The position numbers were made by a program, and so were the translations under genes. A stretch of 35,339 bases of DNA from Thermoplasmata archaeon (lineage in GTDB: Archaea > Thermoplasmatota > SW-10-69-26 > JACQPN01 > JAJPHT01): NCBI GenBank assembly GCA_034667685.1, contig JAXDQU010000023.1, positions 1-35,339 on the forward strand, read 5' to 3'. Shown here piece after piece: positions 4,301 to 35,339 of the stretch. The notes under the pieces were generated by a model. The model had not been told where the DNA came from, searched no databases, and saw only the letters and a list, made by a program, of their open reading frames with translations. Position 1 is the first letter of the stretch, and the number at the start of each line of letters is the position of its first letter.

Positions 4301-5372
4301 CCGAGGTGTCGGTGGAGCGCGCGTTGAGCCCGTTGGTGATCGCGTGCCACGTGGCGCCGTTGTCGGAGCTGAGCTCGACGAAGCCGTAGTCGCCCTGGTC
4401 GCCGCTCGTGTTGACCAGCTCGGTCCACGTCATCGTCGTCGTGACGGGGACGCTGGCGAAGTCCGCGATGCCCACGACGGCGCGCATCTCGCGCCCCTTC
4501 GTGTAGCCCAGGCTCGACTTCGAGGCGGTGCCGCCGTCGCTGATCGCCAGCGCGCGCGTCGTGCTCCCCGTGACGGGCGAGACGGCGGTGCCGTTGACGA
4601 CGGTGAAGTCGTCCTTGGGCGTGCCCTGGCCGTTGGCGACGAGCGTCTGCGTGACGCCGATGCCGAGGTTGGGCACGAGGTTCGTGCGCAGGAAGGTGGA
4701 GTCGTCCTCGTACTTGTCGCCGGTGGGCGCGGTGGTCGCGTCGTGGAGCGCCGGGTTGTAGTCGATCGGGAGGCTCGCGAGCGAGTCGGACTCCGTGACG
4801 GCGGCGCTGGAGAACTGGCCGCCGGTGAACTGGCCCACGTACGCGACGTGGAACGTGCTCATGCCCACGACGCCGTGGTCCGAGGAGCTGGAGATCACCG
4901 GCGAGCCGCGCAGGTGGAACTCGTACCCCGTCAGGCCCAGCGCGGCCTTCGCCTCCGGGTAGTCGACGTAGCCGTTGCTGCTCGCGGCGCTGCTCGACCC
5001 GTGGGTGAGGGCGTCGAACTTGGCCGCGTCGACGCGCGAGGTCGAGCCCCCCTGGAGGAGCCCGAGCTGCGAGACGCCGTCCACGCCCGAGGTGGTGTCG
5101 CTCCAGGTGGAGGGCACGCCGGCGCCGCCCAGGAGGACCTGCATGGTGTGGTCGCTGGTCGACTTCAGGTCGGCCGTGGTGAGCGCGTCCTGCTGCGCGC
5201 CGGGAGGCTGCATGGCGAAATGCAGCAGGTACGTCGCGCCGATGAGGAAGACGGCCGCCCCCACGACGAAGGAGACGAGGGAGCCGGACGCGCGATCATC
5301 GCCGCGCCAGAAGCGGGCCCGCAGCCACGCATAGACGCGCGGCGTGCACGGCCCAGCCACCCGATTCGCCAA
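1374..5372 (-). CDS. Large Ser/Thr/Gly-rich surface protein with class III (pilin-like) signal peptide and about 7 fibronectin type III repeats
   Basis: N-terminal RGDDRA followed by a hydrophobic helix; a beta-rich domain (YGFVELSSDNGATW..GWIIDDVSI); C-terminal half of repeated LTW..Y.IYR..YYY.V.A.N..G FN3 units. Start placed at TTG 5372 after GAGGT and downstream of TTATATAA; start uncertain. Confidence 0.85.
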   Translation of the reverse strand: MANRVAGPCTPRVYAWLRARFWRGDDRASGSLVSFVVGAAVFLIGATYLLHFAMQPPGAQQDALTTADLKSTSDHTMQVLLGGAGVPSTWSDTTSGVDGVSQLGLLQGGSTSRVDAAKFDALTHGSSSAASSNGYVDYPEAKAALGLTGYEFHLRGSPVISSSSDHGVVGMSTFHVAYVGQFTGGQFSSAAVTESDSLASLPIDYNPALHDATTAPTGDKYEDDSTFLRTNLVPNLGIGVTQTLVANGQGTPKDDFTVVNGTAVSPVTGSTTRALAISDGGTASKSSLGYTKGREMRAVVGIADFASVPVTTTMTWTELVNTSGDQGDYGFVELSSDNGATWHAITNGLNARSTDTSGGVSNWTTHTITIDATNCPSCLGAVAVEVAFHWVADTDSTTGKGWIIDDVSIGSTGFSQNFEKPVYDMLVIGSSVAQNALTDNAVKSAIGNYVNVYGGRLMVLGGEQNVQWLQPLMHVGISGSSSSVATPDTTNPLLSVPNELDWSSYSNNNKVWDFSGGSDNGLFTGVVQTTAGQDILALSNTGAFGAYGKNGSVILTTYLPYTMSADQRASFFANTLTYGKYRALYFDLGPTVPTGVPVAVSTRTAVIDMTTDGSGIYVEISITMYIWQGATPASSSSVSATTAVPGAPRALNVTPWNGAAHVYWQWPTSNGTTSDGKNSGYDLWRSTSSGAETLLAHVANTVFDYNDTGLTNGQTYYYNLSTSNSYGRSSSSIEISATPSTTPSAATGFTATGGVGAVVLAWTAPSTGGSALTLYNVYRGATSNSLSLLASFPAASNTTWTDVLGTGVSYYYAVSAQNANGESALTTASAAGAFALPTAPVLAGVGNAALRQITLTWTNATVSAGDSVTAFRIYEGSSAGAETLLGTNGGNLSWTDANIANGSARYYYVAAVSSSGEGSHSNEVSVTNYGVATAPTSLAVAPTAGVGGSLTLTWVGPSSWGTGASGSGFLIFRGTSSGSLTQIAATTNANNVSFEDDNVGGTSTTRYYSVAGYGTGGVGANSSVASGSTWGAPTAPALTATANANARTIALTWTASVPTGGDSISSYKVYEGSTSGGESLIYTTSGNASFTYNNAVNGTTYYFYVVGVASGGGASANSNEASATPKGLAVAPTNLVVSVTSNTAKSLTLTWVPPVNWGAGATGQGFLIFRGTNSSNLVQIAATTNSLNTSFVDSNVGADGATRYYQVAGWSDAGVGANTSVASGTTASVPSAPTIVSVLATCGSKCLAITWTAGSSPSMTVLNFTVYRSSGAGASGHEATYALSNTGSGTTLTLSDNSGMSTSTTYYYKITEWNAVGQSLLSVEASGTTLPV

Positions 5373-5406
5373 CCGAACGACCTCGCCCCTGGCTCTCCGG
5401 AACCGA

Positions 5407-5458
5407 TTATATAAGGTCACGGCGGCAAACCAGGGGGCAGCGCCCAATCTCCTTAAGC
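5407..5458. promoter_or_regulatory. Divergent archaeal TATA boxes
   Basis: TTATATAA (5407-5414) and CTTAAG (~5452-5457) are AT-rich boxes in a GC-rich context, ~25-35 nt upstream of the two divergent starts. Confidence 0.55.
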
Positions 5459-6980: not shown

Positions 6981-7175
6981 GGCGAGCGGGCCCGTGTACG
7001 GCTCGGCGTGGACGAGCGGCGCGGTGAGAATACGAAGAGCACGGATGCCGAAGCATGGGGCGGCTATCCGTCGCGAAGATGGCTCGGGTGGTTATCCCGG
7101 ACGCAGAGCTCTTGAATCCCGGCTCCATTGCGGTGGCTGGGGGGCGGTTCTATTCCTTCCGCTTGCCAGCGATCC

Positions 7176-8477
7176 ATGACCCTGCTCGTAGCCTCCGCTT
7201 TACTGATTCCCGTCCTCAGCATGAGCATGCCCGGGGCTCAGGCCGAGAATATTCCAAACCAAACTCCGATCCGGAGCGCCACGGGCGCCATCGTCACATT
7301 GAATTTGACCACTACGCCCGCACACATCCAGTTTGGCGACCTCAGCACGGCGAATTCCACCTTCATTGTGGGTGCGCCGGAGCTGGCGGGACTGGAACTC
7401 ATTGCGCCAAATGGAACGGCATACGTCCAGCAAGGCCAGCACTGGCACACGACCCTCCTGAATGGATTCTACTATCTCTTCCTCAACGTCACCCCGAAGA
7501 CGACTGGGACCTGGCTCTTCAGAAACGCGACAAACCACGCAGTTGTTGACACATTCGTGAACACGGGGACGAACGTCGCCATCAATCCCAATGGCCCGTC
7601 CTGCGTCGGGCAGACTTGGTCGCCGTATTACTACAGCAACGACTACTCCGCGGATTGGAACGCGCCCCTCCACGACGACTACATCTACATGACTAGCCAA
7701 GCGCAGGGGGCGGTCATGTACTGCGGCGGCGTGAATGCGGAACAGCGGGACAATGCCTGGCGATACGGATACAACTTCTATGGGCGGAGTTCCCTCGGGG
7801 GTTCAACCTATCAGTTCAGTGTTGGCATCGCGGACTACGGTGCAGGCTGCGACATCGTGAATCGCGACTTCTTCGGCGGGCCTGCGCAGGAGATTTGCTA
7901 TTCTGCAAAGAATCCACAAGCGGGAATCTACCAAGTCAATACCGATGAGTGGTCGGGGAGCAACTACGTGCCCGGATGCAACGCTGCGGCGTACCTGGGG
8001 AACGGCCCCCAGGGCTGTCCTGATCGGTGGTATTCGTGCTGCAGTCAGATCTCGAAAGAGAGCAAGGATTCAGACGGATCTGCGCAAGATCAACGAATTC
8101 TGGACACGATCAGCCGTCTTGCGTCCTATGCTGGGGCTGCAGCGGATGCATGGTACGTTCAACCGCTTATCGACATCATCGACTGTGTGCTGACGTGCCA
8201 GTCCGATTACACGACAACGTATGGGACTCTAGGGGAGAGCGCGAATCGCGCGCCTGAGGACTATGTCTACTGGAGCTACGTAGACGAAGGGTCTCATTCG
8301 TACGGCACTCTCCACGAGTTGCAATTCGCGTCGGCCATGACGGGGTACTACGAGATCCATGCGGGGCTCAAAGCTGAGGTCGATGACTTCTATATCTTCC
8401 AGGGCTTCCCGGACCTCGTTCAAGAATGGGAGCACTGGATCGAAACTGATGTCGAAGTGCTGATTACTCATGGATAG
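7176..8477 (+). CDS. Secreted Cys/Tyr/Asn-rich hypothetical protein (lower-GC segment)
   Basis: Signal peptide MTLLVASALLIPVLSMSMPGAQA; long ORF with atypical codon usage. Confidence 0.75.
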   Translation: MTLLVASALLIPVLSMSMPGAQAENIPNQTPIRSATGAIVTLNLTTTPAHIQFGDLSTANSTFIVGAPELAGLELIAPNGTAYVQQGQHWHTTLLNGFYYLFLNVTPKTTGTWLFRNATNHAVVDTFVNTGTNVAINPNGPSCVGQTWSPYYYSNDYSADWNAPLHDDYIYMTSQAQGAVMYCGGVNAEQRDNAWRYGYNFYGRSSLGGSTYQFSVGIADYGAGCDIVNRDFFGGPAQEICYSAKNPQAGIYQVNTDEWSGSNYVPGCNAAAYLGNGPQGCPDRWYSCCSQISKESKDSDGSAQDQRILDTISRLASYAGAAADAWYVQPLIDIIDCVLTCQSDYTTTYGTLGESANRAPEDYVYWSYVDEGSHSYGTLHELQFASAMTGYYEIHAGLKAEVDDFYIFQGFPDLVQEWEHWIETDVEVLITHG

Positions 8478-9549
8478 AATCTGCGTCGTCCTGCTCGTCG
8501 CGATTGTGGCGATCCCAGGGTGCACCTCGATCGCGCCAGAACACCATGAAACACGGGCCACCGAGGTTGCCACAGAAGCGTGTCCCATTGGCGTATTCGA
8601 CCCCGCAATCCATGCTGGCGTTGCCGGGGATGTCCTAACGGCCGAGAGGCAGGCCTTTCCTTCCTCCTCCCTTGAGCACAACAACGATTCTGATCATGAG
8701 CAGGCTCGTGCCATGCTTAGAACCGCGGAGGCTCAGATCTCCGAAGGGAACGCGTCGCTCGGGCTCGAATCACTCCGCGAGGCCTTCGCGATGACATACG
8801 CGACGTCTGAAGGGTTCCGATACATGAGCCAAACAGCAGTTCGGGAACATGCGAACTCGACATCCGAAGAGATCGCAGCCCTCCTCACCCGCTTGGCGCA
8901 GCAACGTGATGGTGACAAGACCGATACAGACCAGCTTGCGCTGGCCGAAATGCTCGCGATCGAGTCCAAGTACTACCTTCTGCACAACGTCGCGTTTGAG
9001 ATGGGGAGAAACCTCGACATACCGAACAATCGAGAAATCGTCGGTGTTGAGCTTGGGAGAATCGAGCGAAGGCTTCTGGATGCTGAGACACTTATGAATA
9101 CGACGGGGCGCAAGAATGAGTCGGCACTCTTCGTCTACACGCCTCCCGACTCGCTCCCAGAGAGCGCTAGTCCGCCCTTGTCTTCGCCGCCGGAACTTTC
9201 CTGGTTCAAGTTCCTGGGCTTCGAGCTATACCCGTGGGTTGCGCGAGAAGCCGGGAACTTGAGCTTTCCTGAAGCTCAGTTCGAGGCAGCGCTCGAAGGG
9301 CGGCTCTATGCAAGCGGAGTCCTATCAGCAGCAGGCTCTGCGCAGGCCAATTCGAGCCAGTTGATGTCGCCCACAAGCGTCCGCACGGCAGGCGATGCAT
9401 GGGATGCATCGATTCTTGCGCAGTACGCGGAGGAGTGCGGCGAGATCAGGACACCTCTGGAAGCCCGAGTCGTGTCTTCGCTTGTGGTTTCTGTTGAACA
9501 GAACGAAGAGGCGCGGTCCGCCGCGTATCACGTGGTTCTCTCGCCATGA
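8470..9549 (+). CDS. Hypothetical lipoprotein, largely helical (lower-GC segment)
   Basis: MDRICVVLLVAIVAIPGC lipobox-like signal; 8-nt overlap with the upstream gene. Confidence 0.7.
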   Translation: MDRICVVLLVAIVAIPGCTSIAPEHHETRATEVATEACPIGVFDPAIHAGVAGDVLTAERQAFPSSSLEHNNDSDHEQARAMLRTAEAQISEGNASLGLESLREAFAMTYATSEGFRYMSQTAVREHANSTSEEIAALLTRLAQQRDGDKTDTDQLALAEMLAIESKYYLLHNVAFEMGRNLDIPNNREIVGVELGRIERRLLDAETLMNTTGRKNESALFVYTPPDSLPESASPPLSSPPELSWFKFLGFELYPWVAREAGNLSFPEAQFEAALEGRLYASGVLSAAGSAQANSSQLMSPTSVRTAGDAWDASILAQYAEECGEIRTPLEARVVSSLVVSVEQNEEARSAAYHVVLSP

Positions 9550-23918: not shown

Positions 23919-25553
23919 TCACGGGCGCGCGAAGGCCGGCGTGACGCTCCCGTCCGCGGGGACCGGCGCTCCAGCCTTGCACACGCCGTCGAGGAGGCCG
24001 GGCGTCACGGTGGTCGGCGGGAGCCTGCGGTGGCTCTGCTGCTCGTAGGCGTAGGCGTAGCCCAGGAGCTTGGCCTCGCTCCACGCGGGCCCGAAGAAGC
24101 TGACGCCCTCCGGATTGTGGCCGTTGTAGCCCGCGGGCACGATGACCGTGGGATAGCCCGCTTCGGCGCCCGTCTGGTAGTAGGAGAGCGAGGGCCCGAC
24201 GATGACGTCGAGCGAGTCCTTGGCGAAGAGGCCGTCGTCGTACTGCTGCGCGGCCTTCTGCGCGGCGAGACCCGTCGCCATCGAGAGCGTGGGGTCGCCC
24301 GGCGTCGCGTCGCTGGCCTGGAGCAGGTCCTGGCCGTACTTCACCTGGTCCGGGTGCTGGCTGTTGTACGCGATGATGTCGGCGAGCGTCTTCACCGGCA
24401 GGCCGGGCCCCGCCTCGTGGGCGAGGTAGTCGTTGATGCCCTGCTTGAACTCGTTGGGGATCACGCCCAGCTCGCTCGTGCCCCACTGGTCGGCGCCGGT
24501 CGTCCCCGCGTTGGGCGCGCCCGCGCTGCTCTGGATGGGCACGAGCGTCGCGCCCGCCTTTTTGATATCGTCGAGCGCCTTCGCGAAGATGGCGTCCGAC
24601 TGGTAGTTGGCGTCGTAGCCCACGCGCTTGCCCTTGAGCGCGTCGAGCGTGAGGCCGGCCGTGAAGTCCGTGACGTGGGACGCGCTCGCGGCGGTGGCGG
24701 CGTCCTCCGGGTCGGGCCCCGCGATGGCGTTGAGCACGCGCGCCGCGTCCTCCACGTTCCGCGCCATGGGGCCGGGCGTGTCGAAGTCGGCGGCGAGCGG
24801 GATGACGCCCGCGCGGCTCACGAGGCCCAGCGTGGGCTTCACGCCCACGAGCGAATTGGCGTCCGAGGGCCCGAGGATGCTGCCCTGCGTCTCGGTGCCG
24901 ATGGTGGCGGCGGCGTACGCCATGCTGCCCGCGACGCCGCTTCCGCTGCTGCTCCCGCTGGGGTCGCCGCCATTGTAGGCGTTGTGCACCTGGCCGCCCA
25001 GGCTGCTGTAGCCGTTGGGGTTGTTGAGCGAGATCCACTGCGCGAACTCGCTCATCTTGGCCTTGCCCAGCACGATGGCGCCCGCGGCGGCGAGCTTGTC
25101 GGTGAGCGTCGCGTTCTTCGGCGGCGTGTTGTTGGCGAGCGCGATCGAGCCCGCGGTCGTGGGCATCCAGTTGGTGCCGACGTTGTCCTTCACGAGGATC
25201 GGGATGCCGTGCAGCGGCCCGCGCAGGTGGCCCGCGGCGCGCTCGGCGTCCATCTGCGCGGCGAGGTCGCGCGCGTGCGGGTCGAGCGTCTGGACCGCGT
25301 TGGTCTTGTCGTCGAAGGCGTGGATGCGCGCCTCGTAGGCGTCGACGAGCTGCACGCTCGTGATCGTCCGGTTCGCCAGCGCGCCTTCGAGCTGGCCGAT
25401 CGTGGCGTTCTGGAGGTCGAGGCCGCCCACCGCGCCCAGGCAGTCGCCGCCCACCGCGCTCGTCGCCGGGCTGTTCGCGGGCGAGGTGCCGGGCGTGGCG
25501 AGGCATCCGGCGCTCAGCAGGACGACGAGGACGAACGCGGCCGTGGCGCGCAT
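23919..25553 (-). CDS. Amidase signature family lipoprotein
   Basis: LSAGC lipobox; GPLHGIPILVKDN, GSSSGS, GTETQGSI, VGVKPTLGLVSR (Ser-cisSer-Lys triad motifs). Confidence 0.93.
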   Translation of the reverse strand: MRATAAFVLVVLLSAGCLATPGTSPANSPATSAVGGDCLGAVGGLDLQNATIGQLEGALANRTITSVQLVDAYEARIHAFDDKTNAVQTLDPHARDLAAQMDAERAAGHLRGPLHGIPILVKDNVGTNWMPTTAGSIALANNTPPKNATLTDKLAAAGAIVLGKAKMSEFAQWISLNNPNGYSSLGGQVHNAYNGGDPSGSSSGSGVAGSMAYAAATIGTETQGSILGPSDANSLVGVKPTLGLVSRAGVIPLAADFDTPGPMARNVEDAARVLNAIAGPDPEDAATAASASHVTDFTAGLTLDALKGKRVGYDANYQSDAIFAKALDDIKKAGATLVPIQSSAGAPNAGTTGADQWGTSELGVIPNEFKQGINDYLAHEAGPGLPVKTLADIIAYNSQHPDQVKYGQDLLQASDATPGDPTLSMATGLAAQKAAQQYDDGLFAKDSLDVIVGPSLSYYQTGAEAGYPTVIVPAGYNGHNPEGVSFFGPAWSEAKLLGYAYAYEQQSHRRLPPTTVTPGLLDGVCKAGAPVPADGSVTPAFARP

Positions 25554-25611
25554 GCTCGCGGCACCTCGCGTGGGGCCGATAAGAGTTGTTGCGGCGCAAC
25601 GCGCCCGATCG

Positions 25612-25816
25612 CACGAAGGCCGAAGAGCGAAGCCTCCGAAGCTGCCCGTGTGGGGTGTCGTGGGCGCGCTCCGCGCGGAAACAGCCCGAATCACGAAGAC
25701 CCGAATCCCGCCTTTTCGTCGTGATTCGGGTCTTCGTGATTCGGGCTGCTCCCCGCCGGAGGCGGCGCAACCTCACAGAGTCCGGATTTCGGAGGCTTCG
25801 GCGATCGGCCTTCGTG
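25612..25816. repeat. Nested inverted repeats of CGAA-containing units
   Basis: Perfect 26-bp IR 25682-25707/25723-25748, inside an outer IR 25612-25640/25788-25816. Confidence 0.88.
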
Positions 25817-25832: not shown

Positions 25833-27293
25833 TCAGCCCACGAGCCGAATGAGCGGCGGCACCACGATGGGCAGCAGGATCAGCGCGAGGATGAAGAGGC
25901 CGATGCCGGTCGTCGTGCGGCGCACCTGCCGCTGCACGAGGTCGAGCTTGGCCTGCGTCTCCTCGTCCTTGCCCTTGACCTTGAGCACGCCCATCTCCTC
26001 GCGCTCCACGCTCAGGCGCGCCTTGTCGACGCCCGCGCGGCGCATGAGGCGGTCCGAGAGCGTGGCGCGGAACATCTGGCCGCCGTCCAGCGGACCCGCG
26101 GGCAGCGCGTTGAACGTGCCGAGCATGAGGTTGATCCACACGATCCAGTAGAGCAGCGTGGCGATGCCGAAGAACACCGGCGCGCCCAGCGCGGCCAACG
26201 GCCCGTGGATGGTGTAGAGCGCGTTGAACGGCGGCGCCATGAGGTCGATGCCGCTGCCGAAGACGAAGAACGGATAGCCCACGTAGAAGCCGAACGCCAG
26301 GAGGCTGCCGAAGGGGTGACGGAGCCAGTCGGCGCGCTGCGCGAGCGTGCCCACGTCGATGCCCGCCACGCCGAGGAATCCCTTGCCCTTGTTGTCGGGC
26401 GTGTTGGCCGAGGGCTGCGCCTTCTGCACGTAGTCATACTTGTCCGTGAGGATCGGCGTCGCGCTGAGCGCCTTCCCGTCGCGCAGGAACGCGACCTGGA
26501 TGGCCTGGCCCGCGTGCGTGCCGTTCATCACCGTCGTGTAGTCGTCGCGCGTGGTGATATCAACGCCGTTGACCTTGGTCAGGACGTCGCCCGGACGCAG
26601 CCCCGCGGCCTCCGCGCCGCTGCCGGGCTCGACGCTGCCCACGACCACGCCGTGGCCGTCGTTGACGAACGTGAGCGAGCCCAGGAACGCGAACGCGAGC
26701 AGCGAGCCCGCGACGAGCGCGAGGACGAGGTTGCTCGTGGGCCCCGCGGCGAACACGCGGTTCTTCTCGCGGGTCGTGGCGCGCAGCAGGTCCTCCTCGT
26801 CGGGCTCCACGAACGCGCCCACCGGGATGACCAGCACGAGCAGGCCCAGCGCCTTGACGCGCATGCGGCCCACGTACGCCATGACGCCGTGGCTCCCCTC
26901 GTGGATCACGAGCGCGACGAGCAGCGCCACGAGGCCGTAGCCCACCGGGATGAGCGGGTTGACGCCCGGGATGCCCAGCAGGAACTCGGGCGCCGGCGCG
27001 TTGGCGGCGGCCTGGCGCGGCGCGCTCACGTACTGCCACAGGCTCGCCACGAGCAGCACGAAGACGAGCACGCCCACGATCCACGTCACGACGATGCCCA
27101 CGTCGGCGACGATCTCCCAGAAGCGGCGCGGCGTCGCGACCTTCTGGATCGCCTTCTTGCCGAACTGCGTGCGCCAGAATAGGAACGGCCCATTGAGCTC
27201 GAAGCCCCCCTTGAGCGGGCCGCGCGTGCGCAGGAACAGCACGAGCAGCGCGTACGCCACGACGAGGCCGAGGAAGACGAGCCAGCCGTTCAT
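25833..27293 (-). CDS. Site-2 protease (M50) with PDZ domain
   Basis: HEGSH (HExxH), GAFVEP, AGPTSN, PDZ (AGLRPGDVL), FNALPAGPLDGG. Confidence 0.94.
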   Translation of the reverse strand: MNGWLVFLGLVVAYALLVLFLRTRGPLKGGFELNGPFLFWRTQFGKKAIQKVATPRRFWEIVADVGIVVTWIVGVLVFVLLVASLWQYVSAPRQAAANAPAPEFLLGIPGVNPLIPVGYGLVALLVALVIHEGSHGVMAYVGRMRVKALGLLVLVIPVGAFVEPDEEDLLRATTREKNRVFAAGPTSNLVLALVAGSLLAFAFLGSLTFVNDGHGVVVGSVEPGSGAEAAGLRPGDVLTKVNGVDITTRDDYTTVMNGTHAGQAIQVAFLRDGKALSATPILTDKYDYVQKAQPSANTPDNKGKGFLGVAGIDVGTLAQRADWLRHPFGSLLAFGFYVGYPFFVFGSGIDLMAPPFNALYTIHGPLAALGAPVFFGIATLLYWIVWINLMLGTFNALPAGPLDGGQMFRATLSDRLMRRAGVDKARLSVEREEMGVLKVKGKDEETQAKLDLVQRQVRRTTTGIGLFILALILLPIVVPPLIRLVG

Positions 27294-27344
27294 GGACGGC
27301 GAGGACTCGGCCCCTCTTCATTTAAGGGTTGCCGGATCGGACGG

Positions 27345-27986
27345 TCAGAGCCCGACGACGCGCAGCCCTTCGAGCCCGCGCCGCACCAGGTCCTCGATCT
27401 CGACACGCCCCTCCTCCTTCTGCACGCGCTCGTAGGCCGCGCCGGTGCTCGGGTTGGAGGGGCCCAGCACGTCGCACAGCTCGGGGCCCTTGCTGATCTC
27501 GTACGTCCCCCAGCCGCGCGCCAGGTCGATGATGTCCACCTTGTCGTAGGCGAGCAGCGGGCGCAGCACGGGCAGGGGCGCGGCGCGGTCGATGCTCGCC
27601 AGGTTGGTCAACGTCTGGCTGCTCACCTGGCCGAGGTTCTCGCCCGTGGCGATCGCCACGCAGCCAAGCTGGGGCGCCAACGCGCCGGCGATGCGCGCCA
27701 TGAGGCGTTTCGATAGCACGAAGTAGAGCCGGTCGTCCGCGCGCTTCACCAGCTCGCCGAAGAGCGGCCCCGCGGGGACCACGTGCAGGCGCGCCAGGCC
27801 CAGCGCCTTGGCGAGCGCCTTCGCCTTCTCCTCGCCGCCCGCGTCGGTGAACGGCTCCAGCGAGAAGTGCACGGCCTCCAGCTCCACGCCCTGCTCCTGG
27901 AGGAGCTTGCCCGCGACGGGCGAGTCGATGCCGCCGCTCAGGAGCAGGAGCGCCTTGGCCTTCAGGGGCGGCGCGAGGAGGGTCAC
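27345..27986 (-). CDS. thiI: ThiI-like PP-loop sulfurtransferase, catalytic domain only
   Basis: LLSGGIDSPVA, TGENLGQVSSQTL, RPL..DK..I; 213 aa with no N-terminal NFLD/THUMP; own TTTATC box ~25 nt upstream. Confidence 0.85.
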   Translation of the reverse strand: MTLLAPPLKAKALLLLSGGIDSPVAGKLLQEQGVELEAVHFSLEPFTDAGGEEKAKALAKALGLARLHVVPAGPLFGELVKRADDRLYFVLSKRLMARIAGALAPQLGCVAIATGENLGQVSSQTLTNLASIDRAAPLPVLRPLLAYDKVDIIDLARGWGTYEISKGPELCDVLGPSNPSTGAAYERVQKEEGRVEIEDLVRRGLEGLRVVGL

Positions 27987-28027
27987 GCGGCGCGCTGAGG
28001 CGTCCGCCACGATAAAGCTGCGCGCGG

Positions 28028-29278
28028 CTACGCGAGGGCCCTCGGCGCCAGGAGCGTGGGGATCGTGGGCTCCGAGACGCGCAGCAGCGCGTGCCCGATA
28101 CCGGCGATGCCCGTCAGGAGCGAGAGGCTGGGGTGGTAGAAGACGCCCGTGGGCCATCCGGAGAGCCCGGCCACGTCCGCGTCCTGTCCTGCGAAGCGCT
28201 CCACCTGCTCGTCCACCCAGCGGCGCACGGCGGCCAGCGCGCGCTCGTCGCCCAGGTCGCGCGCCATCTCGAAGGCACAGTCGGCCAGGCCCAGCCCGCC
28301 GTGGCAGAGCGTGAGGTCGGAGCCGGGCGCGTCGCCGAAGCGCTGGAGCGCGTCGAGCGTGGTGCGCAGCGCGACGCGCACCTCGGCCTGCGTCCTGGCG
28401 TCGCGGACCGACATGCGCGCGCGGGCGAGGCCGATGCCGGGCGCGCCGTGGCACCAGGCCGTGGCGCAGATCCGCCGCGCGCCGGGGCGCAGGGCTCGCA
28501 GGTCGCGCCAGTTCTGCTGCTCCTCGTCGAAGTGCTCGCGCTCGTAGGCCACCGCGGCGCGCGCCGTCTCCTCGTAACGCGCCTCGCCGGTGAGGCGGCC
28601 GAGCTGGTCGAGCGCGAGCGCGATCCCGGCGTTGCCGTGGCTCAGCCCCGTGAGGTGCATGAGGTTGTCCCCGCCGCCGTTGGACCACGAGGCCGTCTCG
28701 CCGCGCACGCGCGCGTCCGCCACGAGCGCGTCGCCCACCTCGCCGGCCAGGCGCGCCGAGCCTTCGTGGCCGCGGTGCGCGAGGTCGGTGAGCGCGAGCA
28801 GCGTCCCGGCGCGGCCGGTGATGAGGTCGTCGCGCTCCCACGGGACGGATTTCGATCGCACCTCGTCGAGCAGGCCGATGGCGTTGCGCCGCAGGTCGGC
28901 CGCGCCGTGCGCGTCGGCGATGCGGTGGGCCGCCCAGCAGGTTCCGACGTTCCCGGCGTAGAATCCCCAATGCAGCATGGCGTTCCCGGCGCGCACGCGG
29001 GCGCGGGCCACGCGCAGGGCGTAGGTCGCGGCGGCGATGGCCGTGCGCTCCGCGTCGGGGTCGCGCAGGGCGATCGCGACGTCCGAGAGGAAGAGCGCGA
29101 CGCCGGCGGCGCCGTCGTAGATCCAGGGGCCCAGGGCCCGGCTGGAGGCGAAGGGGAGGCTCGACGTGCCCACCTCGGGGACGACGGGGCCGACCCACGT
29201 GCACTCGCCGCGCGCCCAGATGGCGGAGCCCACGAGGAGCCCGGCCAGGTGCGCGACCTCGTCGCGGGCGCCCGTCAT
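28028..29278 (-). CDS. Stand-alone lanthionine cyclase (LanC-like)
   Basis: YDGAAG, DLITGRAG, GLSHGNAG (catalytic His), NWRDLR, AWCHGAPG and LCHG (Zn ligands), LLTGIAGIG..LLR; ATGA overlap with the upstream gene. Confidence 0.92.
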   Translation of the reverse strand: MTGARDEVAHLAGLLVGSAIWARGECTWVGPVVPEVGTSSLPFASSRALGPWIYDGAAGVALFLSDVAIALRDPDAERTAIAAATYALRVARARVRAGNAMLHWGFYAGNVGTCWAAHRIADAHGAADLRRNAIGLLDEVRSKSVPWERDDLITGRAGTLLALTDLAHRGHEGSARLAGEVGDALVADARVRGETASWSNGGGDNLMHLTGLSHGNAGIALALDQLGRLTGEARYEETARAAVAYEREHFDEEQQNWRDLRALRPGARRICATAWCHGAPGIGLARARMSVRDARTQAEVRVALRTTLDALQRFGDAPGSDLTLCHGGLGLADCAFEMARDLGDERALAAVRRWVDEQVERFAGQDADVAGLSGWPTGVFYHPSLSLLTGIAGIGHALLRVSEPTIPTLLAPRALA

Positions 29279-30204
29279 GGCGCGCCCTCCTGGAACGGGT
29301 CAGGGCCCTGCGAGTCGCACAGGTAGGGCGCCTCGATGGACAGGTTGGCGGCGGCGAAGCTCGCGGCGAGGGCGGCGGGCAGATCCTCGCCCGTGGCGCG
29401 GGCGCGGTCGATGCCGGCGGCGAGCGCGCGGCACGTGACGATGCCGAAGCTCTCGTGGCTGCGCGGGCTGAGCGCGAGCCCCGTGCCGTGCGCCAGCGGG
29501 AAGGTGAAGAGCGGCTGCCAGGGGCGCAGGTGGCGCCGAACGTCGCGCGAGGCCGCGAGGATCGCCTCCCGCGCGGGCTTCCAGCTGCTCCTCGGGACGT
29601 ACACGACCACGGCGTCGGCGCGCGTGTACGCGACGGGATCGGAGAGGCATTTCATCGTGAACTCGGCCCCCGCGTTGCGCAGCGCGCCCCACGTGGCGCG
29701 CACGACGTCGGTCACGCCCTGCGCCGAGGCGTTCAGGTAGACGCGGACCACGCCTTCCCCCGGGCGCGGGCCCCCGTCGCTGCCGAAGAGGAAGAACCAG
29801 CCCGGCGAGACGCCGGCCGTGAGCGCGCGGCGGCGCACGAGCACCGCGTCGCCTTCGCGGCGGATCTCGTCGGGCGCGGGGCGCAGCACCTCGCCGTTCA
29901 CGAGGAACGCGTGGCCGCCGCGGCCGGGGAGCGGGAATCCGGGCTGCCAGCTCGCGCTCTGGTCGAACTCCGCCTTCAGGCGAAGGAAGAGGCGCTCGTT
30001 GGCCAGCGGGTCCCGCGCGGTGGGCGCGCCGGGGATCGTCTGGAACGCGGTGCAGTACGCGCGCCGGTAGAGGTGATCCGCGAGCCGCTCCGCGAAGGGG
30101 CGGGGGTCGTCGGGGGCCGCGTGGGGGACGGGCGCCTCGGCGATGGCCACGTGGTCGTCCTGGAGCGCGACGACGCGCAGCAGCGAGGAGATCGAGGCGT
30201 GCAT
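29275..30204 (-). CDS. HopA1-like phospho-Ser/Thr lyase (LanY-like)
   Basis: RVYLN, F.MKCL.DP..Y.RADAVVVY, PLFT.PLA.G.G.A..P...ESFG...C motifs; context between kinase and cyclase. Confidence 0.82.
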   Translation of the reverse strand: MHASISSLLRVVALQDDHVAIAEAPVPHAAPDDPRPFAERLADHLYRRAYCTAFQTIPGAPTARDPLANERLFLRLKAEFDQSASWQPGFPLPGRGGHAFLVNGEVLRPAPDEIRREGDAVLVRRRALTAGVSPGWFFLFGSDGGPRPGEGVVRVYLNASAQGVTDVVRATWGALRNAGAEFTMKCLSDPVAYTRADAVVVYVPRSSWKPAREAILAASRDVRRHLRPWQPLFTFPLAHGTGLALSPRSHESFGIVTCRALAAGIDRARATGEDLPAALAASFAAANLSIEAPYLCDSQGPDPFQEGAP

Positions 30205-30207
30205 GGG

Positions 30208-31335
30208 TCACTCCAGCGCGACGCCGAGCGCGCCGCGCATCCAGGCCGCGGGGTCGCGCACGGCGTCGCGGCACCACGCCAGCGCGACCTCGCCCATGAG
30301 GTTCGTCCGCTCGCCGGGGCGCATCATGCGGATGGAGGACTGCTCCCAGGCGATCATCGCGAGGATCGTGGGGACGTAGCGCGCGGCGCGGCGCTCGTGC
30401 TCGCGGCGCTGGGCGGGCGTGAGCCCGCGCGCGGCCGCGTACGCGTCGAGGAAGGCGCGGGCATTCTCCGCGGGACGGATCGCGCGCAGCGTCTCGTGGA
30501 CGTCCTGGGCGGCGACGAGGTTGCGCGCGCCGGCCACGACGAGGGAGAACCGCGCGTACTCCGCGAGGTAACAGGCCACGTCGTAGGCCTGGTCGCCCAC
30601 GAGGGCCAGCTCCCAGTCGATGAGGCGCGTCGCGAACTCGCGCTCGTCGTCGGCGGGCGTCACGAGGACGTTGTCCCAGCGGATGTCGCCGTGCACAAGG
30701 TCGTCGCGCTCCTGCCAGAGCGACGTGAGGGCCGGCAGGAGGGCGAGGACGCCCGTCTCCTCCAGCGCGTCGAGGAACTCGTGCGTCACCTCGCGCGAGC
30801 TCACCCCGGCTTCGAGCGCGGCGGTCATCATGCGCAGCGCGAGGGGACGCTCGGCTGCGGGGTCGGGGCGCGGGGCGGAGGCGGCGACCGGGCCGCGCGC
30901 GCCGTGGAGGTCGCCCAGCAGGGCGCCGGTGATGAGCCCCGCCGACGCGGAGAACTGGACATCGCCCAGGTTCAGGTGGTACTTGGTGAGCGTGGTCGCG
31001 GGGTGGATCAGCCGCGTGACGATGACGCGCTGCTCGGGGTCGAAGTCCACGAGCGCGGGCAGGCTGGGCCAAGCGCGCGCGAAGCGATGGTCCTGCTCGA
31101 GCGACCGGAGGATCATGGCCTCGCGGGCGGTGGCGTCCCCCTCCGCCGACTTGGCCTGCTTGACCAGGAGGCCGGTCCCGTCGCCGAACGTGATGCGCAG
31201 GTTGCGGTTGCGGCGCGAGCGGTCCTCGACCTCGAGGTCCGGCGCGTCCAGGACCTCCATGCCACCCAGGACGCCGCGCGCCATGAGGTAGGGGATGACG
31301 TTGGCTGCGTGCAGCTCGAATGCCGGCTTGGGCAC
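30208..31335 (-). CDS. APH/phosphotransferase-family Ser/Thr kinase (LanK-like)
   Basis: L...NV.PYL N-terminus, SRRNRN, LLVKQ (ATP Lys), LVHGDIRWDNVL, LIDWE...GD.AYD; GTG start 8 nt after GGAGG. Confidence 0.88.
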   Translation of the reverse strand: MPKPAFELHAANVIPYLMARGVLGGMEVLDAPDLEVEDRSRRNRNLRITFGDGTGLLVKQAKSAEGDATAREAMILRSLEQDHRFARAWPSLPALVDFDPEQRVIVTRLIHPATTLTKYHLNLGDVQFSASAGLITGALLGDLHGARGPVAASAPRPDPAAERPLALRMMTAALEAGVSSREVTHEFLDALEETGVLALLPALTSLWQERDDLVHGDIRWDNVLVTPADDEREFATRLIDWELALVGDQAYDVACYLAEYARFSLVVAGARNLVAAQDVHETLRAIRPAENARAFLDAYAAARGLTPAQRREHERRAARYVPTILAMIAWEQSSIRMMRPGERTNLMGEVALAWCRDAVRDPAAWMRGALGVALE

Positions 31336-31405
31336 GGCTCTGCCTCCTCGCGGCGGTGCCAAGGGCCCAACCCGTCGAGAACCTTTGCATGGCTGGGACG
31401 ACCGT

Positions 31406-31435
31406 AGAAAGAGAAGAGGGCCCCGCCGCGCGGGG
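31406..31435 (-). terminator. Hairpin plus pyrimidine tract downstream of the precursor gene
   Basis: CCCCGC-3nt-GCGGGG (31421-31435) followed on the minus strand by CCCTCTTCTCTTTCT. Confidence 0.5.
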
Positions 31436-31447
31436 TGGACGGACGGA

Positions 31448-31645
31448 TCAGCAGAAGAAGATCGTGCAGGTGCACGACTGGCCCGTGCCGCTGATGGGCG
31501 GCGGACAGATGCCCGTCCCCTGCGAGCACTGGTGGGTGGGGCACGTGGGGGAGACCGCCTCGGCGGGGCGCGACGCGCGGCCGAAGACGGCGGTAGGGCT
31601 GGTCTTGTCCATCGTCAGAATCTGGTTCGCACTGAGCTTCGTCAT
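31448..31645 (-). CDS. RiPP (lanthipeptide) precursor peptide, 65 aa
   Basis: MTKLSANQILTMDKTSPTAVFGRASRPAEAVSPTCPTHQCSQGTGICPPPISGTGQSCTCTIFFC; GGAGG (31655-31659) 9 nt before the ATG; Cys-free N-half, and 6 Cys + 10 Ser/Thr in residues 31-65; first gene of the modification operon. Confidence 0.87.
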   Translation of the reverse strand: MTKLSANQILTMDKTSPTAVFGRASRPAEAVSPTCPTHQCSQGTGICPPPISGTGQSCTCTIFFC

Positions 31646-31762
31646 GGTCTGAAGCCTCCATTCATGGTGTCGGCCGCGGAGCGGCCGCGCTTGCCGCGAA
31701 GCGCAGGGTCGAGCATGTAACTTGCGGCGCGCGGGGGGCGCGTCCGTGCGGGCCAAGCCATT

Positions 31763-32839
31763 ATGAGGACTCGCGAGGGTGACCTTTCGCGAGGAGGCAC
31801 GAGGCTGGCGTCCCACGACGACGTCGTCATCCGCGCGGAGGACCTCTCCTTCCGCTATCGCAGCGCGCGCCCCGAGGCGCCGCCCGCGCTCGAGGACATC
31901 TCCTTCCACGTGCGGCGGGGCGAGGTCTTCGGCATCCTCGGCCCCAACGGCGCCGGCAAGACGACGCTCATCAAGATGATCAGCACCATCCTCCTCCCGC
32001 AGGCGGGACGCCTGGACGTGCTGGGGCACGCGCTCCCCGCGGGCGAGCAGCAGGTGCGGCTGAGGCTGGGCGTGTGCCTCGCGGAGTCGGAGCGCGCCTT
32101 CGCGTGGCGCCTGACGGGCCGGCAGAACCTGGCGTACGCCGCGGCGTTCTTCCGCCTGGACCGGCGCGAGGCGGAGCGGCGCATCGACGAGCTGCTCGCG
32201 ATGCTCGGGCTGCGCGAGCACGCCGACAAGCTCTTCCAGGAGTACTCGACGGGCCTGAAGCACCGCCTGGCCCTGGCGCGCGCGCTCCTGCCGCGCCCCG
32301 ACCTCCTCGTCCTCGACGAGCCCACCGCGGGCCTCGACGTCCGCAGCAGCCACGAGCTGGCCGAGACGCTGCGCCGGCTCGCCGCGGGCGGCGTCACCAT
32401 CGTCTACACCACGCACCGGCTCGAGGAGGCCGCCGCGCTCTGCGACCGCGTCCTCGTGGTGCGGGAAGGACGCCTGGCGGCGGTCGCGGCGCCCACCGAG
32501 CTGGCGCGCCTCGTCCAGCAGGCCCGCGTCGTGGAGGTCGCGCTGGAGGGCGTGGTCCCCGCGTCCTACGCCGAGCTTCCGGGGCGCGGCACCGTGTCGC
32601 GCGCGGAGCTGACGGGCCGCTCCTCGCTGCGCCTCCAGTGCGGCGACGTCGACGCGGCGCTGGGCGAGGTCCTGGCGTGGGCGCGCGCCGAGCGCGTCGG
32701 GATCGCTTCCGTCGCCTCCACGGGCCCCACGCTGGTCGACGCGTTCGTCGCCATCACCGAGGGGCGCCTCCAGACCCTTCCCGCCGGGCCGCCCGCGCGC
32801 CCCCGCGTCGAGTTCACCCTCGTGGAGGCGCGCCGGTGA
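31763..32839 (+). CDS. ABC-2 type exporter ATP-binding subunit
   Basis: GPNGAGKTT, YSTG signature variant, LVLDEPTAGLD, TTH; the start may instead be CTG 31805 after GGAGG. Confidence 0.93.
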   Translation: MRTREGDLSRGGTRLASHDDVVIRAEDLSFRYRSARPEAPPALEDISFHVRRGEVFGILGPNGAGKTTLIKMISTILLPQAGRLDVLGHALPAGEQQVRLRLGVCLAESERAFAWRLTGRQNLAYAAAFFRLDRREAERRIDELLAMLGLREHADKLFQEYSTGLKHRLALARALLPRPDLLVLDEPTAGLDVRSSHELAETLRRLAAGGVTIVYTTHRLEEAAALCDRVLVVREGRLAAVAAPTELARLVQQARVVEVALEGVVPASYAELPGRGTVSRAELTGRSSLRLQCGDVDAALGEVLAWARAERVGIASVASTGPTLVDAFVAITEGRLQTLPAGPPARPRVEFTLVEARR

Positions 32840-33828
32840 AGCCCCGCGCGCCGCAGGCCGCGGGCGCGGCGCTGGCCGCGGCGCTGCTCGTCGTCGCCTT
32901 CCTCCTCCCCGGGGGCGCGCGGCGCTGGCTCGCGCCCCTGGCCGTCATCGCGCTGGGCGCGGGGCTCGTCTACGCCCTCGGCGGGGGGCGGAGCGTCCTG
33001 CGCATCGGGAACGCCATGATGCGGCGCAACTGGCTCACGATGGTGAGCTACCGCATGCAGATCGTGGCCTTCGCCGTGTACGTCGCGCTGGGCCTGGCCC
33101 TGATCTGGCTGGTGGGCAAGCCCGTCCTCGACGCGCTGGTCGGGCCCGCCCAGCTCCTCCACGGCGCGGGGCTTCCGCCCGACGCGGCCTTGCTCCTGAT
33201 CGTGGGCGTGGTCTCGTGGCCGCTCTTCTGGCGCTCCTGTGAGGTCACCGCCAACGGCGTGCGCCAGGAGCAGTGGTCGGGCACCTTCGAGTCCATCGTC
33301 CCGACGCCCGACGGCGTGCGCGCGCTCCCGTTCTGCTATCTCTACAGCAACGTGGGGGTCAGCATCCTTTCGCAGGCCGCGATCCTGGTCCTTCTCGGCT
33401 TCGCGCTCCCCGCGGGCAGCCTCCACCTGGTCGACCCCGCGCTGGCCCTCAACTTCCTCGCGGTGACGTTCGTCTGCATGCTTTGCATGTGGGGGCTCGG
33501 GCTCCTCTTCGGCGGGCTCGCCGTGCTCTACAAGCAGCTCGGCCCCGCGGACGCCGTCGTCAAGCTGCTCTTCATCGCGCTGGCCGGGATCTTCGTCCCG
33601 CTGCAGCTCCTGCCGGGCTGGATGCAGGCGGCGTCCCGCGCGATCCCGGTGACGTACGCGCTGGACCTGCTTCGGGGCATCGCGGTGGACGGACGGGGCA
33701 TCGCGGACCAGCCGGTGGCCTTCGCCATCCTCGTGGGCTTCACCGTGGCCACGGTCGTCGCGGGGAACCTGGCCTATCGCGCGCTCGTGGACCGCGCGCG
33801 GCGGCAGGGCGCGATCCAGGGGTACTGA
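32836..33828 (+). CDS. ABC-2 type exporter permease
   Basis: GTGA overlap with the ATPase stop, GGAGG upstream; EQWSGTFE..P, G.FVP...LPGW.Q..S..IP.TY....R motifs; multiple TM helices. Confidence 0.9.
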   Translation: MKPRAPQAAGAALAAALLVVAFLLPGGARRWLAPLAVIALGAGLVYALGGGRSVLRIGNAMMRRNWLTMVSYRMQIVAFAVYVALGLALIWLVGKPVLDALVGPAQLLHGAGLPPDAALLLIVGVVSWPLFWRSCEVTANGVRQEQWSGTFESIVPTPDGVRALPFCYLYSNVGVSILSQAAILVLLGFALPAGSLHLVDPALALNFLAVTFVCMLCMWGLGLLFGGLAVLYKQLGPADAVVKLLFIALAGIFVPLQLLPGWMQAASRAIPVTYALDLLRGIAVDGRGIADQPVAFAILVGFTVATVVAGNLAYRALVDRARRQGAIQGY

Positions 33829-33835
33829 GCGCTCC

Positions 33836-33961
33836 TCAGCTCTTCTTCGTCCCCTTGATCTGCGTCCAGTCGAAGTATTTCCCGCACTTCTTGCAGCGCC
33901 ACTTGTTCGCGATCACGAAGACGACCGCGCGTTCGCCGCAGGCCGGGCAGGTCTCGACCAC
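33836..33961 (-). CDS. Small zinc-ribbon protein (41 aa)
   Basis: MVETCPACGERAVVFVIANKWRCKKCGKYFDWTQIKGTKKS; GTG start with GGAG upstream. Confidence 0.65.
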   Translation of the reverse strand: MVETCPACGERAVVFVIANKWRCKKCGKYFDWTQIKGTKKS

Positions 33962-34008
33962 GTCTTGCCGCTCCGGGTGGCTTGCACGGCCTCGCCGGGC
34001 ATAAGGCT

Positions 34009-34500
34009 TCACGAAGGCCGAGCCGGGACGCCCAGCACGAGCACCTGGAAGCGGATCTCGCCGCTCTGCTGCGAGAAGGAGACGCGCTGGTGGCCGTGCG
34101 GCGCGGGGACGCAGTCGAACGCGAGCGTCTGGCCTTGCGCCGCGACGTCGCCGAACGAGTAGGAGCACGCGCCCGGGCCGGTGGCGCGCAGGCCGACGCT
34201 GGCGCCCGAGAGGGGCGTGACGAGCACGCGCACCGCGCTGAGGTTCGCCGGGAGGTCGGCGTCGAGCGAGGCCGTGGCGTTCACGGGACCGACGTTGGGC
34301 AGGCCCAGCGAGAGCGTGCCGTTGGCGAGCGCGTAGGGGGCGGCCGGCGCGGGCGCGGCCGTGGGCGCCGGCGCGAGGGCCGCGGTGGCGAGCGTGGCGG
34401 CGGGCGCGACGGGCGCGTCGGCGAGCAGCGCCAGCACGGCCAGGCCCAGGAGGACGCCCACGAGGAACGCGCCTGCGATGCCCAAGACGAGCCTGCGCAT
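34009..34500 (-). CDS. Hypothetical exported or membrane-anchored protein
   Basis: N-terminal MRR + hydrophobic helix, Ala/Pro linker, beta-rich domain with a Cys pair. Confidence 0.65.
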   Translation of the reverse strand: MRRLVLGIAGAFLVGVLLGLAVLALLADAPVAPAATLATAALAPAPTAAPAPAAPYALANGTLSLGLPNVGPVNATASLDADLPANLSAVRVLVTPLSGASVGLRATGPGACSYSFGDVAAQGQTLAFDCVPAPHGHQRVSFSQQSGEIRFQVLVLGVPARPS

Positions 34501-34550
34501 GGGGCGCAGGGATGCGCGAGGGGGGCTTCACGCTTGTGGCGGGCGCCGCG

Positions 34551-35255
34551 TCAGGTGCTCTCGTCGGCCGCGCCGCGGTAGAAGCGCCGGTAGAGGCGCC
34601 CCCAGAACGGGTTCGGGAAGAACGTCAGGATGGGCACCGCGACGCAGATGACGAAGCCCGCCGCGGGGCTGACCATCGCGACGGCGAGCGCGAGGGCGAA
34701 GAGGATCGGCGCCACGGCGAAGGCGACGCTCGTGCCCCGGAAGATGCGGCGGTCGAAGACGGGGTTGATCATGAGCGGGTCGCGCGTCGCGTAGAGCAGC
34801 ATCTGGAGGAGCGCCAGGCCGCAGAGGATCAGGTCGACGCAGTAGAGCGCGATCGCCAGCCGGTCGCCGGAGAACTTGCCCAGGTACGTCGTCGTGAACG
34901 GCACGAGGCTCACGAAGAGCAGGTAGACGACGGTGGTGACCATGAGCGGGCGGTCGCTGCGCACGATGTAGTGGAACACGATGGCGTGCGCGACCCAGTA
35001 GGAGCCCAGCAGCACGAAGCTCATGGCGTACACCAGCAGCGGCGTGGAGAACGTGCCCCAGAACTGGGCGGGCGTCTCGGCGCGCTCGGGCATGCTCGAG
35101 AGGAGCGAGAAGGCCAGCAGCGTCATCGCGATGCTGAACACGCCGTCCGAGAGGCTCTTGATGCGCGAGTTGTCGCTGTAGTGCGCCTGGTCGTCGAGCT
35201 CCACGACCCGCTCGGGAATGTGCGGGCGGTTGCGCATCACGCGCGACTCGGCCAT
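34551..35255 (-). CDS. TMEM175 family potassium channel
   Basis: R...LSDGVFSIAMTLL signature; YW..H; L.FVSLVPFTT; 6 TM helices. Confidence 0.9.
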   Translation of the reverse strand: MAESRVMRNRPHIPERVVELDDQAHYSDNSRIKSLSDGVFSIAMTLLAFSLLSSMPERAETPAQFWGTFSTPLLVYAMSFVLLGSYWVAHAIVFHYIVRSDRPLMVTTVVYLLFVSLVPFTTTYLGKFSGDRLAIALYCVDLILCGLALLQMLLYATRDPLMINPVFDRRIFRGTSVAFAVAPILFALALAVAMVSPAAGFVICVAVPILTFFPNPFWGRLYRRFYRGAADEST

Positions 35256-35339
35256 GCGGAGCGGAATACGGCCTTCGGGGAAGAGCGTTGGGAAAGACGA
35301 CGGGCTCGGGGCTCTGGACTGAGGACTCAGGGCTCCGGA

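Follow-up and report, generated by a model that had tools for sequence, protein, structure and literature searches.

It is likely, at a probability that we put at roughly 0.8, that the window analysed here, the whole 35.3-kb contig JAXDQU010000023.1 (35,339 nt) of assembly GCA_034667685.1, carries a complete biosynthetic island for a lanthipeptide of class Vb type, the host being a Thermoplasmatota archaeon. Only six genes make up the island (Table 1). A candidate precursor peptide (LanA), a stand-alone kinase (LanK), a HopA1-type lyase (LanY) and a LanC cyclase follow one another on the minus strand, and an ABC-2 ATPase and permease are encoded divergently. An earlier note, made from the sequence of the window, had proposed just such a split kinase/HopA1-lyase/LanC cluster of the lanthipeptide type with its own precursor and ABC-2 transporter, and the Pfam matches support it. 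The gene positions, order and strands that it gave are all correct according to the open reading frame (ORF) coordinates and Pfam, as are the 3-nt gap between LanK and LanY (30205–30207) and the ATGA overlap of the LanY and LanC genes (29275–29278), while the scans with PF01636, PF17914 and PF05147 that it had called for all returned matches, including that of the middle gene to HopA1. The divergent ATPase/permease pair is likewise present, the permease gene overlapping the ATPase gene by GTGA. All reading frames of the island are open; the start of LanK is ambiguous, with a TTG at 31362 and a GTG ~27 nt downstream. Besides the two tight junctions, the cluster has gaps of 85 and 117 nt, the latter being the divergent spacer, presumably the site of both promoters.

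Table 1. Genes and limits of the island, with the evidence for each assignment
Feature	Position	Strand	Evidence
Candidate precursor LanA, 65 aa	31448-31645	-	ORF translation MTKLSANQILTMDKTSPTAVFGRASRPAEAVSPTCPTHQCSQGTGICPPPISGTGQSCTCTIFFC; 85 nt upstream of LanK gene
LanK, predicted APH-fold Ser/Thr kinase, 384 aa	30208-31362	-	Pfam APH PF01636 1.1e-9
LanY, predicted HopA1-type phosphoSer/phosphoThr lyase, 309 aa	29275-30204	-	Pfam HopA1 PF17914 2.1e-25
LanC, predicted stand-alone zinc lanthionine cyclase, 416 aa	28028-29278	-	Pfam LANC_like PF05147 3.4e-46
Divergent intergenic region, precursor gene/ABC ATPase gene, 117 nt	31646-31762		Coordinates
ABC transporter ATPase, DrrA-like, 358 aa	31763-32839	+	Pfam ABC_tran 2.7e-29; NCBIfam drrA 4.6e-68, below cut-off
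ABC-2 permease, DrrB-like, 330 aa	32836-33828	+	Pfam ABC2_membrane 5e-10; NCBIfam drrB 4.4e-6, below cut-off
Accessory island limits	27954-33841		No counterpart at site in congeners

Published systems are cited throughout from the parts of the papers that were available to us. In these, class V is split into class Va, which has LanD and LanX, forms aminovinyl-methyl-cysteine (AviMeCys) and has no LanC, and class Vb, which has a dedicated LanC and forms (methyl)lanthionine, (Me)Lan, only (PMC11186320, PMC12291118, PMC12328550). The island encodes both halves of a class V dehydratase, namely, a stand-alone APH-fold kinase with catalytic loop and Mg-binding Asp and a stand-alone HopA1 lyase with the Arg/Lys/Arg/Tyr set, together with a dedicated zinc LanC, whereas neither a LanD flavoprotein decarboxylase nor a LanX gene is found between its limits. 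Since both are missing, the island fits class Vb, although its peptide ends in Cys, and no aminovinyl-cysteine would be expected in the product.

The catalytic residues of all three enzymes are intact. In LanY, R154, K185, R195 and Y202 are invariant in 16 sequences (the window's, five archaeal paralogues and ten database relatives), and their spacing of 31/10/7 compares with 32/10/7 for R187/K219/R229/Y236 of CaoY, positions that were matched by spacing, CaoY itself not being in the alignment. In this cacaoidin lyase, Arg187 and Lys219 have been probed by mutagenesis, and dehydration by LanK together with LanY is established for cacaoidin (ACS Chem Biol 2022, PMC9486802). LanK, whose APH match lies above the Pfam cut-off, has K68, H224-x-D226-x-R-W-D-N231 and D249-W-E, all invariant among the six archaeal copies, which also have in common the further family-specific stretches R-R-N-R-N and P-A-T-T-L. 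The profiles of the two proteins match two chains of one PDB entry: 9dk1_A, ‘Kinase’, is the top match of LanK (3.1e-6) and 9dk1_B, ‘Lyase’, is matched by LanY (1.8e-34), which matches HopA1 itself (4rsx) at 2.6e-4. Finally, LanC carries H214, W-C276-H-G and C325-H326-G, i.e. the zinc ligands C276, C325 and H326 and the active-site His. It is nearest to the cyclase domains of LanM enzymes: its top NCBIfam match is TIGR03897, the cyclase end of LanM (2.3e-61), its top PDB match is LicM2 (6st5, 2.3e-19), and a profile of six archaeal copies matches 6st5 at 3.9e-32 versus only 2.5e-7 for NisC. Two of the other archaeal LanC genes (L005 6710–7789 and L013 6358–7449) have C-C-G where that of the window and three others have C-H-G, which gives a three-Cys zinc site, as in ProcM-type LanM enzymes.

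The candidate precursor has the layout of a lanthipeptide substrate, a leader followed by a Ser/Thr/Cys core, and adjoins the synthetase genes. Its first 31 residues contain no Cys, while the last 34 hold all six Cys, one of them C-terminal, and ten Ser/Thr. The gene looks genuine, with a GGAGG 9 nt before its ATG and a GC content at third codon positions (GC3) of 0.94, like real genes of the host genome. No Pfam or NCBIfam family matches it, and no homologue of it was found in the databases. A structural model of the LanK–precursor complex received a score of 0.79 (median of three runs), the best of three controls reaching 0.00; this mark is reached by 58 of 80 solved complexes and by 2 of 110 mismatched pairs. 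Between runs, at least 27% of the contacts are shared, and the predicted local distance difference test value (pLDDT) of the precursor is at least 41. The confident contacts join precursor residues 1–6, 9–13, 15 and 17 to LanK residues 121–124 (the invariant P-A-T-T), 127–131, 234–243 and 279. The model thus supports, and does not show, binding of the precursor N-terminus by LanK. A hairpin just 3' of the precursor gene was also considered as an attenuator and rejected, because the segment 31385–31450 of the minus strand folds at -16.7 kcal/mol with a z of 0.39, and 129 of 200 shuffled sequences do as well; this counts against our interpretation of the locus.

From gene content and homology we infer the chemical steps, the substrate, the export and the expression of the system as follows. 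LanK would bind the N-terminal leader of the 65-aa precursor and phosphorylate Ser/Thr in its C-terminal 34 residues with ATP, in line with its homology to the CaoK/CaoY pair. LanY, probably in complex with LanK, would then eliminate phosphate to leave dehydroalanine or dehydrobutyrine, and the zinc enzyme LanC would add the six Cys thiols to these dehydro residues, yielding up to six (methyl)lanthionine rings. The leader would be removed by a protease encoded outside the island, and the DrrAB-like ABC-2 pump would export the product or protect the producer.

The island is absent from the same site in related genomes. Of the congeners, G003 and G001 cease to resemble the window in DNA at 27953 and G002 does so at 27988; similarity to congeners resumes at 33842, inside a 56-aa zinc-ribbon gene. 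In G001 and G002 the ThiI-like gene lies 330–360 bp from the zinc-ribbon gene and the 5.8-kb block is absent, while in G003 synteny breaks at the same point. Neither a flanking direct repeat nor an integrase was found at the island ends. Two congeners thus lack the whole block at this position; precursor, pump and all three enzymes are gained or lost together, as one 5.8-kb unit, which is the best evidence that the ABC-2 pump belongs to the system. Similar behaviour is seen in G003, which has four clusters with flanks 78–91% identical to contigs of the host genome (G000) that lack those clusters; at host contig C110, for example, ~0.7 kb replaces 4 kb. The second cluster of the host, on contig C89, and the G003 cluster on contig C50 are 60–69% identical in protein sequence and lie in different contexts, and all six clusters of the genus are only 31–38% identical to the proteins of the window. 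The search for syntenic clusters that the earlier note had suggested found related clusters in archaeal genomes, none of them at the same position. The same note had taken host-like codon usage as a sign of long residence. The usage is indeed host-like, with a GC3 of 0.96 in the cluster genes, but long residence does not agree with the absence of the island from two congeners and the lack of synteny between sister clusters. Other parts of the contig vary as well. In G003, G001 and G002, the genes that flank an amidase gene of the window (23919–25694, PF01425 5.6e-67; segment 23819–25851) are present and the amidase gene is not, which makes a second indel on the contig. Furthermore, the genes at 34009–35339, for a TMEM175-like channel and a 163-aa protein, are absent from the ThiI neighbourhood of G001 and G002, where DNA resembling contig C24 of the host genome lies instead; the conserved zinc-ribbon gene thus stands between two variable segments.

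Clusters of the same kind occur elsewhere in the phylum. HopA1 matches occur in 2 of 41 relatives and in 5 of 401 genomes drawn evenly from the phylum, the host genome counted (1 of the 262 high-quality genomes; 4 of 162 genera). The holders are the host genome (two copies), G003 (four copies) and three genomes of another family, f30, in which 19 genomes were covered. Together they provide eight further kinase–lyase–cyclase loci, in four other genomes plus the host, with Cys-rich precursors wherever enough DNA was available, and the order kinase, lyase, cyclase is kept in nine of nine archaeal loci. A relative of the window's ABC pair was found in none of the eight other loci, within the surrounding DNA examined. 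Beyond the phylum, an exhaustive phmmer search with LanY returned 2,170 representatives (E ≤ 0.001), among which the top match other than the query itself is 37% identical. The 148 best database relatives were placed in a tree; 80 of them are shorter than 450 aa and 65 have at least 590 aa, the length of lyase–cyclase fusions. Among 80 metagenome loci (of 163 confirmed), 19 have a lyase and/or cyclase beside the kinase and 12 have all three, at GC contents of 0.33–0.76, so the trio is common in environmental DNA, which is probably mostly of bacterial origin. In the LanY tree (FastTree, 157 rows), the nine archaeal rows fall into four groups, of which the starred branches force at least two; many branches are long. 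From these sequences no donor or direction of transfer can be named.

The archaeal clusters appear to be linked by a leader family, defined in the present analysis by an N-terminal box, [DE]-[IV]-E-R-L-[ED]-x-[TA]-[SP], ~8–12 residues from the start (the DIERLENTS box). A relaxed scan for the box found Cys-rich small genes beside every archaeal locus except a 2.5-kb fragment (L021), giving 14 peptides besides that of the window, none of which matches Pfam or NCBIfam. In G003 (contig C39), G246 and G312 the box is close to L-K-A-R-D-I-E-R-L-E-N-T-S-F-A, with shorter variants in the short-peptide clusters, and the 80 metagenome loci are all without it. When 5.8 billion proteins were searched with a profile, 35 matched at E ≤ 0.01. 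Eight of these belong to the query itself; the other 27 are new, each with 3–17 Cys and with the box or a close variant of it, and the two of the 35 that are named at NCBI are both ‘Thermoplasmatota archaeon’. This brings the recognisable precursors to at least 41, 14 in the loci studied and 27 in the databases. An independent profile, built from 37 family members with no sequence of the host genome, puts two C89 precursors in the top two places among 49,725 frames, though only at E ~2.

Several of these loci have features of their own. The C89 cluster has three tandem precursors of 32–37 aa with T-G-C-Y cores and a fourth similar peptide gene on the opposite strand, overlapping the 5' end of the kinase gene. 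In G003 (contig C39), an MsnO8-family LLM oxidoreductase (L010 5669–6574; 192.6 bits, above cut-off), which may be a reductase of dehydro residues, is encoded between the gene for a 117-aa precursor with 16 Cys and the kinase gene, and a second precursor gene, 85% identical, follows the cyclase gene. Finally, G246 (L022 5233–6810) and G312 (L023 4800–6383) encode a 525-aa membrane protein with an HExxH motif, the gene of which runs into the start of the kinase gene. This M50-like protein, whose top NCBIfam match is the daptide intramembrane metalloprotease (below cut-off), is a candidate leader peptidase.

Overall, there is an even chance, in our judgement, that Thermoplasmatota own a radiating and horizontally mobile lineage of class Vb type, which would be the first lanthipeptide machinery in Archaea to be found beyond Halobacteria and also the first there without LanM. 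Such a lineage would have a dedicated DIERLENTS-box leader family read by the invariant P-A-T-T-L of LanK, hypervariable cores of 3–21 Cys, and lineage-specific additions, namely, the M50-like protease, the LLM reductase and, in the window, the ABC-2 pump. The cluster of the window would be its most divergent member, with a leader that has drifted from the box.

Sequence markers identify the host of the island as archaeal. The host genome (3.48 Mb in 124 contigs, 71% GC, 99% complete, 1.3% contamination) encodes ribosomal protein L31e elsewhere. As the earlier note had recognised, the island is embedded among archaeal housekeeping genes, for which Pfam and NCBIfam give ThiI-like, M50 protease, TrmJ, Orc1/Cdc6 (273 bits, cut-off 181) and type-2 isopentenyl diphosphate isomerase; a Trm14-like gene on the contig has the archaeal Trm14 model as its top match, below cut-off. 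An archaeal host also agrees with the paralogous cluster on contig C89 (~44.7–48.1 kb; L005 6710–10103), which lies ~21 kb from an archaeal rRNA operon consisting of a full 16S (1498 bits) and the start of a 23S at 69.2–72.2 kb, both best models within their Rfam clans. The cluster precursor of G246, a genome grouped in the same phylum, is identical letter for letter to an NCBI ‘Thermoplasmatota archaeon’ protein, and it is by this single link that the phylum name Thermoplasmatota is attached; among ten proteins of the G246 contig scanned for archaeal markers, only a weak HerA-like match was seen.

Could the block nevertheless come from a bacterium and have been joined in error to an archaeal contig, as a chimera of assembly or binning? 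Its GC content of 0.75–0.76 at 28001–31000, versus 0.71 for the genome, would fit this, as would the title ‘Proteobacteria bacterium’ in the public record of the congener G003 and the fact that the nearest LanY relatives are unnamed metagenome proteins. The GC3 of the cluster, however, matches that of its neighbours (0.94–0.98), and the C89 paralogue shares its contig with archaeal 16S and 23S. The G003 contigs (L014–L016) are collinear with the host genome at 78–91% DNA identity, and since the flanks of its four clusters are equally similar to host contigs, G003 is a mislabelled congener. Moreover, Logan contigs from two soil runs match exactly, at 26500–28457, 28429–31964 and 32821–34600 in run X1 (depths 8.8–10.7) and at 27276–28177, 28170–30775 and 32876–34600 in run X2 (depths 5–7.5). 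They bridge both island borders at the same depth as the flanks. As the two runs may be the source samples, they provide an independent assembly and not independent data; a run of a third study (X3) has small pieces only, including 165 nt at 29934–30098 with six differences. Taken together, these data leave a chimera with a very slight probability.

Other observations weigh against a functional lanthipeptide cluster. The Pfam APH match of LanK is modest (1.1e-9), and the island encodes no leader protease. The complex model was built on our own unpaired alignments, the fold of the precursor in it is uncertain (pLDDT 42–46), and because a similar kinase–lyase complex is in the PDB, its score may reflect likeness. 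In addition, the independent leader profile scores the precursor of the window at -2.0 bits where shuffled sequences reach 6.8, so that its membership of the archaeal leader family is not demonstrable. This peptide resembles the box at I9, M12, D13, T15 and S16 only, short of the DIERLENTS definition, and we rejected it as a family member: the motif scan that did find it (six matches in the genome, five of them at its two clusters) used a pattern widened to fit this very precursor and is partly circular. Such a peptide, unrecognised by the profile and with no database homologue, might be incidental, the three enzymes acting on another substrate, for instance by LanCL-like addition of thiols to dehydrated cellular proteins; eukaryotic LANCL1/2 are also among the PDB matches of LanC. 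Yet LanC is nearer to the LanM cyclase domains than to LANCL, the Cys of the peptide are confined to its C-terminal half in a gene with a GC3 of 0.94, and the N-terminus of the peptide contacts a conserved motif of LanK in the complex model, the controls of which scored 0.00. As every other archaeal locus with enough DNA also has adjoining Cys-rich small genes, we regard a different substrate as quite unlikely. Somewhat less improbable, if still unlikely, is a cluster that is intact in sequence and silent or decaying, that is, a recently acquired island that yields no mature peptide because it is unexpressed or because a working partner, such as a leader protease, is missing. Its strain-variable presence is compatible with this, and so is the lack of a protease gene inside it, whereas the G246 and G312 clusters carry the M50-like intramembrane protease coupled to LanK. 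The M50/PDZ protease gene at 25833–27293 was considered as leader peptidase and discarded, since it lies beside ThiI in all nine genomes of the family, with or without clusters, and thus has no specific link to the island. On the other hand, open frames, intact catalytic residues, preserved translational coupling and a GC3 of 0.94–0.96 as in host genes speak against decay, and a complete class Vb-type biosynthetic island remains the reading that we prefer.

Some further features of the contig are unrelated to the island. A 1,357-aa ORF (1374–5447, minus strand) with fibronectin type III and Ig-like domains matches no NCBIfam family and probably encodes a surface protein. The segment 7001–9549 has a GC content of 0.57–0.59, versus 0.71 for the genome, and is possibly another foreign insert; its two ORFs (7128–8477 and 8470–9549), which overlap at their ends, have no Pfam or NCBIfam match.

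The chemistry belongs to a known kind, and the novelty lies in the archaeal host, in the behaviour of the block as an island and in the family of archaeal precursors linked to it. In the literature available to us, all characterised archaeal lanthipeptides come from haloarchaeal LanM enzymes, and surveys frame lanthipeptides as a hypersaline speciality of Archaea. If true, a three-protein route in Thermoplasmatota from soil would extend class V chemistry to a wider range of hosts and add to the chemistry known from non-halophilic archaea. With four genes and a pump, the system is small, and its highly variable Cys-rich cores offer new ring topologies. The mobile-island behaviour suggests strain-level competition in soil. 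One may speculate that, if the product targets bacterial cell-wall precursors, a wall-less producer would need no immunity.

The counterpart among known systems is the Smo system of class Vb (SmoK, SmoY and SmoC with SmoA), reportedly described by Pei et al. (2022, J Am Chem Soc 144:17549). It likewise comprises a stand-alone APH-type kinase, a HopA1-type lyase and a dedicated LanC, with neither LanD nor LanX, and by analogy only (Me)Lan rings would be expected here. It differs in its host, Streptomyces as opposed to an archaeon, and in the window the DrrAB-like ABC-2 pump is part of the island. As far as can be told, the precursors and leaders are unrelated, the Smo sequence not being among those compared. 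The sole characterised class Vb member is mSmoA from Streptomyces (PMC11186320, PMC12291118, PMC12328550), a product with overlapping rings. Furthermore, the survey of Eyles et al. 2021 lists 1,340 bacterial HopA1 proteins, 96% beside a phosphotransferase and 20% near or fused to LanC (PMC8153245). The suggestion that the system was plausibly undescribed therefore does not extend to the three-enzyme architecture, known from mSmoA and from the co-occurrence of HopA1 and LanC in bacteria; it does stand for such a cluster in Archaea, of which we found no printed description. Searches of full texts for archaea together with class V, HopA1 or ‘lanthipeptide-class-v’ returned no archaeal class V cluster, though supplements may list such clusters; in Liang 2023, 2 of 50 representative archaeal lanthipeptide clusters are not class II, the main text giving no detail.

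The HopA1–LanC families of Eyles et al. share the same gene trio; their survey covers bacterial phyla, and lyase and cyclase are separate genes here. Class Va systems (cacaoidin CaoK/CaoY, lexapeptide LxmK/LxmY/LxmX/LxmD, pristinin, triantimycins and rosins) share the same LanK/LanY route of phosphorylation and elimination. In contrast to the island, however, class Va as described in PMC12291118 has no LanC, needs a LanD decarboxylase and the kinase-fold cyclase LanX, neither of which the island encodes, and ends in AviMeCys. The thioamitide pair TsaC/TsaD (TvaC/TvaD) also consists of an APH kinase and a HopA1-like partner that dehydrate Thr/Ser; YcaO/TfuA, a LanD-type decarboxylase and thioamide chemistry are absent from the island of the window, which instead has LanC. 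Finally, the archaeal class II systems of Haloarchaea (archalans and sallans, among others; PMC10105419, PMC12144867) are likewise lanthipeptide machinery in Archaea, and the LanC of the window is nearest to the cyclase domains of their enzyme type. They rely on a single LanM, reported in these accounts to be exclusive to Halobacteria, whereas the window encodes a three-protein system in Thermoplasmatota.

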